Shown: positions 3,003-5,547 of the stretch, in pieces
Position numbering within the stretch: the stretch's first letter is position 1
Layout of the letters: each line of letters starts with the position of its first letter
Virus record (IMG/VR): IMGVR_UViG_3300017942_000001
Source of the DNA: a virus
Direction: 5' to 3' (one strand)
Length of the DNA stretch: 64,000 nt
Made by a program: the position numbers and the translations under genes
The notes under the pieces: generated by a model
The model's database searches: none
The model's input: only the letters and a program-made list of their open reading frames with translations
What the model was told of the DNA's origin: nothing

Positions 3003-3434
3003 GTGGCGAAGACTCCCGTCCAACTCGACCGCGAGATCGCGCAGTCCTTGGGGTTGCCCCCAGCGGTCGTGAAGAAGTGGCGGTCGAAGATCGCAGCGTA
3101 TAAGCGCGCCGTAGTCCTCGTCGAGAACGGCGATACATCTACGGAGGCCATCCTCAAGATGGCCAAGGCACGCGACGCCCTCGACAAGACGATCTACGAG
3201 GCGGGCGCGCACGTGCCTTACGTCGTCGGGCAGTCACGGACCGAGGCCCGAGGGCCCGAGGCAGATGCGATCAAGGCGCTTCAGCGTGAGCGCGACGAGC
3301 TGGTGTCGAGCACCTTCCAGCAGGCACAGGAGCGCGGACGCGCGGTCCGCCAGAAGTCGTACGAGGCAGAGATCAAGAGGCTCCGCGAGGAAGAGCGCGA
3401 GGCCCAGCGACCCTACGAATGGATGCGCCGATGA
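3003..3434 (+). CDS. leader-motif protein 1 (MAKTPVQLDREIAQSL)
   Basis: Shared N-terminal motif; coupled ORF chain. Confidence 0.8.
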   Translation: MAKTPVQLDREIAQSLGLPPAVVKKWRSKIAAYKRAVVLVENGDTSTEAILKMAKARDALDKTIYEAGAHVPYVVGQSRTEARGPEADAIKALQRERDELVSSTFQQAQERGRAVRQKSYEAEIKRLREEEREAQRPYEWMRR

Positions 3435-3748
3435 GCAAGACGCCCGCCCAGCTCGACCTCGAGATCGCCGAGTCGCTCGCCCGCAGCTCGAAGGGCGGCC
3501 TGATCGGCGTCGAGATCGATCCTCATGCCTTCGATGCGGAGGACGATCTTCCGCGCGGAGCGCGGTGGCGCAAGGACCTCGTCGCGCTCGCCGAGAAGGA
3601 GCTCCGTCACGGACGGTCGTATCGGCGGCCGAAGAATGCGCGTTACAACGTCGTCGAGTGGATCAGCTACCGCGGCGAGATCGGCCGCCTGCTCGAGTGG
3701 CTGGAGAGCACGCCCGGCGTCACGCGGTACGCGGAGATCTTCGTGTGA
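3431..3748 (+). CDS. leader-motif protein 2 (MSKTPAQLDLEIAESL)
   Basis: ATG at 3431 overlaps upstream TGA; shared motif. Confidence 0.8.
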   Translation: MSKTPAQLDLEIAESLARSSKGGLIGVEIDPHAFDAEDDLPRGARWRKDLVALAEKELRHGRSYRRPKNARYNVVEWISYRGEIGRLLEWLESTPGVTRYAEIFV

Positions 3749-3939
3749 CCAGGCGGAAGTCGCCTCGCCAGTTGGATCGCGAGATCGCCCAGTCGATCGC
3801 GCAAGAGCGGAAGGCCTTGCAGCAGATGCGAGAGCGCTACCTCCAGGTGCTCGGCTACGCCGGGAACACTCCTGAGCAAGTGCGCAAGTATCACGACGCG
3901 ATCGCCGAGGTCGACGCGAAGATGAGGCTGCTCAAATGA
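3745..3939 (+). CDS. leader-motif protein 3 (MTRRKSPRQLDREIAQSI)
   Basis: GTG at 3745 overlaps upstream TGA; 3' part of track ORF 3265..3939. Confidence 0.75.
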   Translation: MTRRKSPRQLDREIAQSIAQERKALQQMRERYLQVLGYAGNTPEQVRKYHDAIAEVDAKMRLLK

Positions 3940-4469
3940 CGAAGTCGACCAAGCAACTTGATCGTGAGATCGCCGCGTCCCTTGGCGACTACGACTGGGA
4001 TTCCTTCGCCGAGGGCGCGGCCTTCGCGTTCTGGGCGAGCCCGTACATGTCGGAGGTCGAGAACCTCAGCGAGGACGCTCGCGAGGCCAAGCACGCGGGC
4101 GACTCGAAGAAGGCGGAGAAGTACGAGGCGGCCTACGACGCGCTGTCGCCCGGGTCTGGCGGGGCCTGGGAGAGCGTCCTGCCCGAGACGCCGCCGTCGG
4201 CCCTGGCCCTGGGGAAGAAGTTCGCCAAGGCCACGCGCGACAAGCTCACCTCCGCCGAGCTGGGTGAGGTCTTCGGCAAGTTCTCCGCGCGCGACGCCGG
4301 CTACTACGGCGCGATGCAGTCGCAGGGCGAGGGCGTCGGCTGGTTCGACGAGGGCGTCCGCGCCGATCCTCCGCGCGGCTTCCAGTGGGACCCGAAGATC
4401 CACAACGCTGTTCACAGGGCGATCGCGTCGGAGGCCCGCAGGGCCGGCGTCCGACTGCCGCGTCGGTGA
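3936..4469 (+). CDS. leader-motif protein 4 (MTKSTKQLDREIAASL)
   Basis: ATGA overlap; shared motif. Confidence 0.8.
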   Translation: MTKSTKQLDREIAASLGDYDWDSFAEGAAFAFWASPYMSEVENLSEDAREAKHAGDSKKAEKYEAAYDALSPGSGGAWESVLPETPPSALALGKKFAKATRDKLTSAELGEVFGKFSARDAGYYGAMQSQGEGVGWFDEGVRADPPRGFQWDPKIHNAVHRAIASEARRAGVRLPRR

Positions 4470-4477
4470 GGAGATCC

Positions 4478-4894
4478 ATGGCCAAGACGAAAGCACAGCT
4501 CGATCGCGACATCGCCGAGGTCCTCGGCGGCGGGAAGTCCAAGAAGGTGAAGGCTCCCTCGTCGAAGGCCGTCGACTTCTTCCGCAAGCACGCCGGCTAC
4601 GCGGTGCGTGCCGGCGAGTCCAAGGCAAGGGCCAAGACGCGCGGTGCTCAGGCCCTCGCCCGCGCGGAGGCGGAGGCCGAGGCCAGGGGCTGGACCGTCG
4701 AGTGGGAGCACGACCCCGAGGAGTGGCAGGGAGACGACGAGCGCCCCTTCGAGGTCTTGACGGCCGTGTTGCGCGACGCGAACGGCGACGTGCTGGCCTC
4801 GCTCGGCGGCATCGGGATGACGGGCAACCGGAAGACCGACCGCGATTATGGACGAGTGATCGAGGCCGAGTTGGCGGCCGAGGCCCTCGGCTAG
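4478..4894 (+). CDS. leader-motif protein 5 (MAKTKAQLDRDIAEVL)
   Basis: ATG at 4478 after GAGGAG; shared motif. Confidence 0.8.
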   Translation: MAKTKAQLDRDIAEVLGGGKSKKVKAPSSKAVDFFRKHAGYAVRAGESKARAKTRGAQALARAEAEAEARGWTVEWEHDPEEWQGDDERPFEVLTAVLRDANGDVLASLGGIGMTGNRKTDRDYGRVIEAELAAEALG

Positions 4895-4904
4895 GAACAA
4901 GGTC

Positions 4905-5210
4905 ATGGCAAAGAAGAAATCTTCTGCTCAGCTCGAACGCGAGATCGCCGAGGTCCTGGCGAAGGAGTCCGGCTCGAGCGGCCCGCGCGTCCTCAAGATC
5001 TCGGGTGGCAAGTCCTTCGCGGATCGGCGCGTCTTCACGGCCATGGTCCAGTATCCCGGCGAGATGCCCGCGCGCGTCGAGTTCGCGGGACCGAGTCAGA
5101 ACATCGTCGGACCCGTAGTCATGATCTTCCGCGGGCAGCAGACGACGGTGACTGATCCGTCGCGGTTCGGCGCGTTTGGCCGGGACTGGGTCCGGCGCTT
5201 CTTCGAGTGA
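4905..5210 (+). CDS. leader-motif protein 6 (MAKKKSSAQLEREIAEVL)
   Basis: ATG after AAGG; shared motif. Confidence 0.8.
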   Translation: MAKKKSSAQLEREIAEVLAKESGSSGPRVLKISGGKSFADRRVFTAMVQYPGEMPARVEFAGPSQNIVGPVVMIFRGQQTTVTDPSRFGAFGRDWVRRFFE

Positions 5211-5229
5211 GCACAAGGAAACAACGACG

Positions 5230-5547
5230 ATGCCCAAGCCACCCTCCCAACTCGACGCCGAGATCGCCGAGACGCTGCTCAAGCCGACGCCGGAGGCCCG
5301 GCGTCACGTCCAGACCGTCCAGCGCCGCGAGCAGTTCCCCGAGATCCTCGCGATCTCGATGCGCCCGGAGGGCACCAACTACCAGGTCAAGGTGCCCGAC
5401 GCCAAGAACAAGCGCGGGTACGACCTCGTCGACGTGCTCGTTCACCACAACGGCCTGCGCTCGATCAAGAGCGCGAGCCGGAGCCGGACCACGCCGGACT
5501 ATGCTTCGAGGATCGTGACCAAGTACCTCAAGGCGATGGAGCCGTGA
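5230..5547 (+). CDS. leader-motif protein 7 (MPKPPSQLDAEIAETL)
   Basis: ATG at 5230 after AAGGAAA; shared motif. Confidence 0.8.
   Translation: MPKPPSQLDAEIAETLLKPTPEARRHVQTVQRREQFPEILAISMRPEGTNYQVKVPDAKNKRGYDLVDVLVHHNGLRSIKSASRSRTTPDYASRIVTKYLKAMEP

Follow-up and report, generated by a model that had tools for sequence, protein, structure and literature searches.

Unrelated tandem proteins of a high-GC soil phage share a modular terminal peptide that may be a capsid address

Why should seven consecutive phage genes encode proteins that resemble each other only at their start? The genes occupy positions 3003-5547 (+ strand) of IMG/VR virus record IMGVR_UViG_3300017942_000001, a stretch of 64,000 nucleotides that was analysed over its full length (the window) and that lies within a 70,285-bp metagenome contig (about 69% GC) of an uncultivated high-GC soil phage. 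Each of the seven open reading frames (ORFs) carries the same short motif, here called the tag, at the N-terminus of its product. A first-pass annotation had likened this leader to the capsid-targeting sequence (CTS) of the T4 internal proteins (IPs) and had proposed that it labels exchangeable cargos for packaging. The analysis reported here indicates that the tag is very probably a modular docking peptide. By analogy with T4, we give about an even chance to the prohead as its destination, which would make the tag a capsid-targeting-like address peptide.

All seven products begin with M-x-K-[TSP]-x(2-4)-Q-L-[DE]-x-[ED]-I-A-[EQA]-x-[LI] (Table 1), and past residue 18 all-against-all comparisons with blastp and phmmer revealed no similarity between any two of them. 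The ORF calls and a hidden Markov model (HMM) of the leader, which scored the array tags at 26-32 bits in a six-frame scan that is slightly circular because the model was built with the window copies included, confirm the shared leader of the first-pass annotation, and the silence of both programs confirms the complete divergence behind it. The runners-up in the scan were the C-terminus of the ORF at 1936-2397 (17.6 bits) and a coiled coil at 40.3 kb (14.3 bits); the remaining window scored at most 8.4 bits, and 20 codon-block shuffles reached a maximum of 11.4. The synonymous codon variation described earlier is real: the array copies exchange CAA/CAG, CTC/TTG/CTT, GAC/GAT, CGC/CGT and GCC/GCG and are pairwise identical at 20-27 of 30 nt, which shows that selection on the tag acts at the peptide level. 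In the amphipathic tag helix L8, I12 and L16 lie on one face, with a hydrophobic moment of 0.57 (T4 CTS 0.47). The statement that the leader often ends in EIAE holds for four of the seven array tags; the other three have Q or A in place of the final Glu (Q, E, Q, A, E, E and E in ORFs 1-7).

Genes called independently in four further assemblies of this phage encode the same seven products. Start and stop codons overlap by 4 nt at four junctions, making the array one translationally coupled block. Pfam and PHROGs yielded nothing usable for the seven proteins, apart from weak matches such as that of ORF 6 to phrog_37964 (function unknown), and a search of a phage genome collection with the region and with ORF 4, by DNA and by protein, returned zero matches. 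Relatives were found in metagenome loci (L numbers): ORF 1 has homologues in L052, L091, L040, L065 and L074, in which the tag is present too, ORF 2 in L118 and L078, and ORF 5 has an 88%-identical homologue in L058.

Table 1. Features of the window discussed in the text (coordinates in nucleotides).
Feature	Coordinates	Strand	Tag	Product and remarks
DUF8336 (PF27025) protein	1936..2397	+	about 2332-2394 (C-terminal)	153 aa, 600 bp upstream of the array; tag VDAQIDREIAEALAAPRGRSR
Tagged ORF 1	3003..3434	+	3003-3050 (residues 1-16)	143 aa, GTG start
Tagged ORF 2	3431..3748	+	3431-3478	105 aa
Tagged ORF 3	3745..3939	+	3745-3798	64 aa, GTG start, MTRRKSPRQLDREIAQSI
Tagged ORF 4	3936..4469	+	3936-3983	177 aa, family B
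Tagged ORF 5	4478..4894	+	4478-4525	138 aa
Tagged ORF 6	4905..5210	+	4905-4958	101 aa, MAKKKSSAQLEREIAEVL
Tagged ORF 7	5230..5547	+	5230-5277	105 aa, MPKPPSQLDAEIAETL
tRNA cluster	5881-6217			adjoins the tagged array
Cpn10 (GroES-like) gene	26402-26740	-		Pfam E=2.6e-33

The HMM runner-up at 1936-2397 proved to be the same tag at the other end of a protein. Its product belongs to DUF8336, and a complete C-terminal tag, its basic head included, is present in 81 of 120 DUF8336 homologues, which are laid out as ..IAERIV, a P/A/S linker, KKTxKQLDREIAEAL and a basic tail. The 39 untagged homologues are mostly about 20 aa shorter, with 129-149 aa in 27 of them, and most end after the domain. The occurrence of the tag at a C-terminus marks it as a position-independent docking peptide and argues against its being an N-degron, a feature of initiation or a joint in the DNA.

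The use of the tag beyond this phage was revealed by scanning JGI metagenomes with a degenerate DNA pattern for ATG-x-K-x3-QLD-x-[DE]-IA-x2-[LI]. The scan yielded 84 loci from soil, rhizosphere, peat and sediment, with 57-71% GC and on contigs of up to 461 kb. Nearly all of them have the full consensus MxKTPAQLDREIAEAL, including positions that the pattern left free: among 109 tags, T/S occurs at -3 in 88, A at -1 in 72 and R at +3 in 71. In the fetched loci a start codon lies 4-12 codons upstream of 130 of the 154 core-motif matches. The 107 cargo sequences that follow the tag form 68 clusters, tagged proteins range in length from 64 to more than 300 aa, and R, S, K and P are over-represented in the 25 residues past the tag. 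At least two tagged genes are found in 25 loci, often as tandem arrays (L054, L056, L079, L121, L052). Some tagged genes lie on 128-461 kb contigs with a jumbo-phage content, many ORFans together with Mom, DnaJ, HIT and sugar-nucleotide enzymes; integrase, sigma factor, endolysin, tail fibre and virion protein genes are further neighbours. The genomic context of the tagged genes is that of phages. Pattern scans of IMG/VR recovered one true tag, in L020, and otherwise chance matches inside coiled coils, which means that the bare 8-mer is unspecific and the full terminal tag specific; phages of this group are nearly absent from IMG/VR. The first-pass annotation had named random occurrence in coiled coils as an outcome that would speak against its proposal; this is true of the 8-mer and untrue of the full terminal tag. 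A multihaem cytochrome in L048 (MTKLVAQLDADIAQYF) was discounted, its match being probably due to chance.

Two cargo domains were followed in detail. Family A proteins, of about 185 aa, have behind the tag a linker that varies in length and contains insertions and deletions, and then a well-conserved domain (PLYGHTSEATAY..DYPYGF..RWNKPKASTY); with this tag they occur in L020, in L058, where the homologue of ORF 5 is also encoded, and in P0009-P0054. A profile search for family A returned 1,636 clusters at 50% identity, and there were zero matches to it in phage and plasmid collections. Family B, the cargo of ORF 4, has 62 homologues, which are tagged, untagged (P0060, P0108, P0113, P0115) or have other N-terminal domains placed ahead of the tag; some of these longer forms may be over-extended gene calls. 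Three homologues (P0073, P0077, P0089) have the fusion order DUF6496 (PF20106), tag, family B, with the tag internal unless the GTG at '..AHA-V-KKTS..' is a second start. AlphaFold 2 models of family A (predicted local distance difference test, pLDDT, 82) and family B (pLDDT 92.9) are beta-rich and all-helical, respectively, and in both the tag is a separate helix (residues 5-16) of lower confidence that lies off the domain. The structure prediction of cargos that the first-pass annotation had suggested thus gave different folds and a tag helix unpacked from the domain. The modularity of the tag follows from the 68 clusters, the existence of families A and B with and without it, the variable linker and the detached helix in the models. 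The family A domain was also seen inside very large Lys-rich multi-domain phage proteins, such as those of L141 (1586-aa open frame), L142 (928-aa open frame) and P0142 (2379 aa).

The link to capsid targeting comes from family A. The first ten residues of T4 IPIII are enough for packaging; within the CTS, residues 4 and 7 serve targeting and residues 8 and 10 processing, and the protease gp21 cleaves after L/I-X-E (PMC9026906). The internal proteins of T-even phages are diverse and have the CTS as their sole common part (PMC3012670). In low-GC phages the leader of family A is MKAFTQYLKEA, MKKFSHYLTEV, MKPFRKYLTEA or MKSFKEFIKEA, comparable with the T4 starts MKTYQEFIAEA (ipII and ipIII) and MKTFKEF (ipI). 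Such family A proteins with a T4-type CTS are found in G001, L134, L188 and P0132. G001, whose 164,106-bp genome has terminal repeats, belongs to the T4-like phages (Gp23, E=3e-132; Peptidase_S77, E=1e-38); its family A protein begins with MKAFTQYLKEA, and two further ORFs have T4-type CTS starts. In L188 family A is the middle member of a tandem trio that starts with MKTFKEL.., MKSFKEFIKEA.. and MKTEYFKKILAEA... Judged by these N-termini, the peptide on family A in T4-like phages is a T4-type CTS. The same cargo thus carries the CTS in T4-like phages and the present tag in high-GC phages, and on this common domain the two are equivalent in position. A separate observation in G001 concerns a 289-aa ORF at 71484 with a CTS-type start, MKSFYQYITES, and a nucleotidyltransferase-like body (GS..D.D motif), which is a candidate packaged enzyme.

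Two further leaders precede family A, each in a jumbo phage. In G003 (IMGVR_UViG_3300009093_000035, 249 kb; L165-L176) it is M..LRSxxIRLAHxKPELRxxLLPLL, common to 12 unrelated ORFs (open frames of 110-565 aa), four of them in tandem at 100.4-102.5 kb; leaders of this type also occur in L130 and P0126. In G002 (IMGVR_UViG_3300036853_000446, 408 kb; L177-L186) family A begins with MxKIASPxEL..LLAYA..PSRxRIASEL..LA, part of a leader of about 45 residues, MxKIASPxELxxELxxLLAYAxSxxPSRxRIASELxxLAxRV, which is found on at least eight other unrelated ORFs. Neither the QLDREIAEAL tag nor DUF8336 nor family B was found in G001-G003, which are weak negatives. Four lineage-specific tags are thus attached to one cargo domain, each common to many unrelated proteins, and one of them, the CTS type, has an established function in T4. 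It is conceivable, although we rate it somewhat below an even chance, that in several unrelated lineages of large phages a short address tag peculiar to the lineage loads a varying set of proteins into the capsid, the tags being interchangeable modules usable at either protein end.

In the model that we favour, the seven ORFs form a tandem array of unrelated cargos, each fused to one modular address tag that is common to a large set of uncultivated high-GC phages from soil and sediment, many of them known from 200-460 kb contigs. The tag is a 16-residue amphipathic helix (M-x-K-T-P/A-A-Q-L-D-R-E-I-A-E-A-L), behind which comes a flexible linker with abundant basic residues, Pro, Gly and Ser. 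The helix may dock on part of the prohead as it assembles, be it the core, the scaffold or the inner shell, whereupon the fused cargo would be enclosed in the head and able to leave with the DNA at infection. Prohead binding, packaging and ejection of the tagged proteins are inferred by analogy with T4. Removal of the tag by a head protease would be possible for about half of the tags, those with I-A-E, and not general. Cleavage after EIAE had been expected by the first-pass annotation as a feature of the tag; as a general feature it finds no support, for among the 109 tags the Glu position holds E in 48%, A in 17% and Q in 17%, and the remainder includes D or S. Because Glu occurs in just 48%, it is unlikely that removal after I-A-E is the rule. 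Of the proposal of exchangeable cargos behind a T4-CTS-like tag, the exchange gains comparative support from the 68 cargo clusters and the likeness from family A with a true T4-type CTS, whereas cleavage after EIAE is unlikely to be the rule.

A possible processing role was considered for another motif. Between 5 and 20 residues past the tag, basic residues together with H-[AS]-T are found in 20 of 109 proteins, versus 7 of 91 in a control stretch. Examples are RRHATA, SSHATV, RGHATV, RHHATR and VHATAKK, from about ten cargo families and from loci such as L050:825, L052:5483, L061:302, L082:1858, L101:4828 and L118:112. The motif also occurs directly before the family B domain and, as AHAV, directly before internal tags. 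That it represents another processing site is speculation from its position and composition.

Several findings weigh against the prohead as the destination. No head, scaffold, portal, protease or terminase gene is present in the window or its 70-kb contig, nor any tail gene in the window, so that no link to a head module can be demonstrated there, and the genes next to tagged ones gave no capsid or protease matches. In G002 and G003, searches for PF03420, PF04586 and PF07068 found nothing. The tag resembles the T4 CTS nowhere beyond 'IAE', and even there the P1 Glu of a T4-type I-X-E site is confined to 48% of the 109 tags and four of the seven in the window. Among the top 150 family A representatives, 77 begin directly with the domain and have no leader, which means that the domain is not in itself a virion protein; the others start with one of several N-terminal peptides. 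The cargos themselves offer little guidance: the family A fold has no match in BFVD, PDB and Atlas, the family B fold none in PDB and the AFDB clusters, and Pfam and PHROGs name almost no cargos behind the tag.

The tag might instead dock a different common partner, such as a phage-encoded modifying enzyme that recognizes the helix, a chaperone, a protease adaptor timing degradation or another site of the virion (tail or baseplate). This explanation accounts equally well for everything that points to a modular, position-independent tag, and the C-terminal tag and the possible internal copies suit a plain linear binding motif; moreover, a Cpn10 gene is encoded in the window and a DnaJ gene lies near a tagged gene in L124. 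If such a partner were encoded close to the tagged genes, a gene family should track the tag, yet none does: the commonest occurs in 8 of the fetched loci, a weak negative since the flanks are short and the gene may be distant. The window has no CxxxCxxC radical S-adenosylmethionine (SAM) ORF, and the connection of family A with the T4 CTS points to the head. We therefore regard another partner as rather unlikely, although it has to be taken seriously. Much less probable is that the shared helix functions within each protein, in oligomerization or DNA binding, and that the genes are fast-diverging paralogues which have retained it. Duplication would give the tandem layout, and DNA binding is suggested by ORF 1, whose tag runs directly into the HTH-like (helix-turn-helix) stretch EIAQSLGLPPAVVKKWRSK that opens its cargo and gives weak matches to HTH_Tnp_1 and to a PHROG of transcription regulators, as well as by an HTH_8 domain on one tagged protein elsewhere and matches of two others to a ParB-like PHROG. 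Arguing against a built-in helix are the different folds of families A and B, the wide range of lengths and the linkers of variable length, rich in Gly, Pro and basic residues, that separate the tag from the domains. The same domains also exist without the tag, DUF8336 carries it at the opposite end, and in the models it is unpacked.

There is hardly any likelihood that the common start serves efficient translation initiation, or marks a joint at which cassettes are exchanged by recombination, and owes nothing to a function of the peptide. M-[AST]-K starts are generally known to favour expression, and the array is compact and translationally coupled; nevertheless, the peptide is kept despite synonymous differences and across loci of 57-71% GC, and DUF8336 genes encode it at their 3' end. 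Synonymous variation, together with the C-terminal copies, has largely refuted this explanation already. Upstream of the tagged genes no conserved promoter motif was detected. At five of them (L050:825, L052:3680, L053:139, L055:2427, L057:1317) a TAGGCT/TAGACT box 6-10 nt before the start, with no Shine-Dalgarno sequence, was noted; the boxes look like -10 elements, which suggests leaderless mRNAs. Leaderless mRNAs are common in Actinobacteria.

How does the proposed capsid address compare with known systems? Like the T4 CTS (MKTYQEFIAE in IPI, IPII and IPIII), the tag is a short N-terminal amphipathic peptide, and in both the T4 IP loci and the present array unrelated small proteins with modular cargo are encoded in tandem and vary between relatives. 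In T4 the tRNA cluster separates ipII and ipIII from ipI (AF158101 65.4-73.9 kb, L189); the tagged array also adjoins tRNAs, which may be coincidence. The differences are equally clear. The tag has 16 residues versus 10 in the CTS and does not fit the CTS type M-K-x-[YF]-x-x-[FY]-[IL]-x-E, which MxKTxAQLDREIAEAL fails to satisfy. Instead of aromatic residues at positions 4 and 7 it presents L, I and L on one face. Unlike the CTS it is also found at the C-terminus, and only half of the tags have the Glu for gp21-type cutting. CTS-like starts are known in T4 relatives; the tag strings were found in no paper, and no description was found of such a shared tag in non-T4 high-GC phages.

The cargo-loading peptides of encapsulins are short terminal peptides that, via a flexible linker, dock unrelated cargo inside a shell with the HK97 fold. 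The layout of DUF8336, with a domain, a Pro/Ala/Ser linker and a C-terminal tag, resembles what is generally known of this cargo arrangement; the encapsulin peptides, however, have a different motif and are not known as helices of this type, and the shell in the present case would be the phage capsid. In the giant phages phiKZ, 201phi2-1 and SPN3US many proteins are packed with the DNA, N-terminal parts direct assembly, and the propeptides of head and inner-body proteins are removed by gp21-like proteases after S/A/G-X-E (PMC9026906, PMC5694885). These propeptides are apparently not one sequence common to all cargos (PMC9026906, PMC5694885), and the tag, unlike them, has no conserved S/A/G-X-E site. 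Leaders of the kind found on ribosomally synthesized and post-translationally modified peptides (RiPPs) or linked to radical-SAM enzymes would be expected next to a maturase gene; none was seen, a weak negative given the short flanks.

The rest of the window encodes small ORFans along with RtcB with an intein, PTH2, a class II core like that of aminoacyl-tRNA synthetases, an RNA-ligase-like protein and odd tRNAs, and there is a weak match to a Cas12f1-like TNB domain. The assemblies run about 4.5 kb past the window (to an end near 68.5 kb) and add small ORFans only.

T4 IPI blocks a restriction enzyme and is a known example of an injected protein that acts in the first seconds of infection. 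Should the tag be a capsid address, any tagged protein in these soil phages would be a candidate for a packaged and injected protein, and the tag would serve as a sequence-only search key to an injected arsenal of at least 68 cargo families, almost all uncharacterized. The key would cover the widespread families A, B and DUF8336, for which there is no known fold match. The trick of T4 would then be general, performed with lineage-specific tags and at either end of the protein, which would bear on how phages select the content of their heads and on the engineering of phages for protein delivery.

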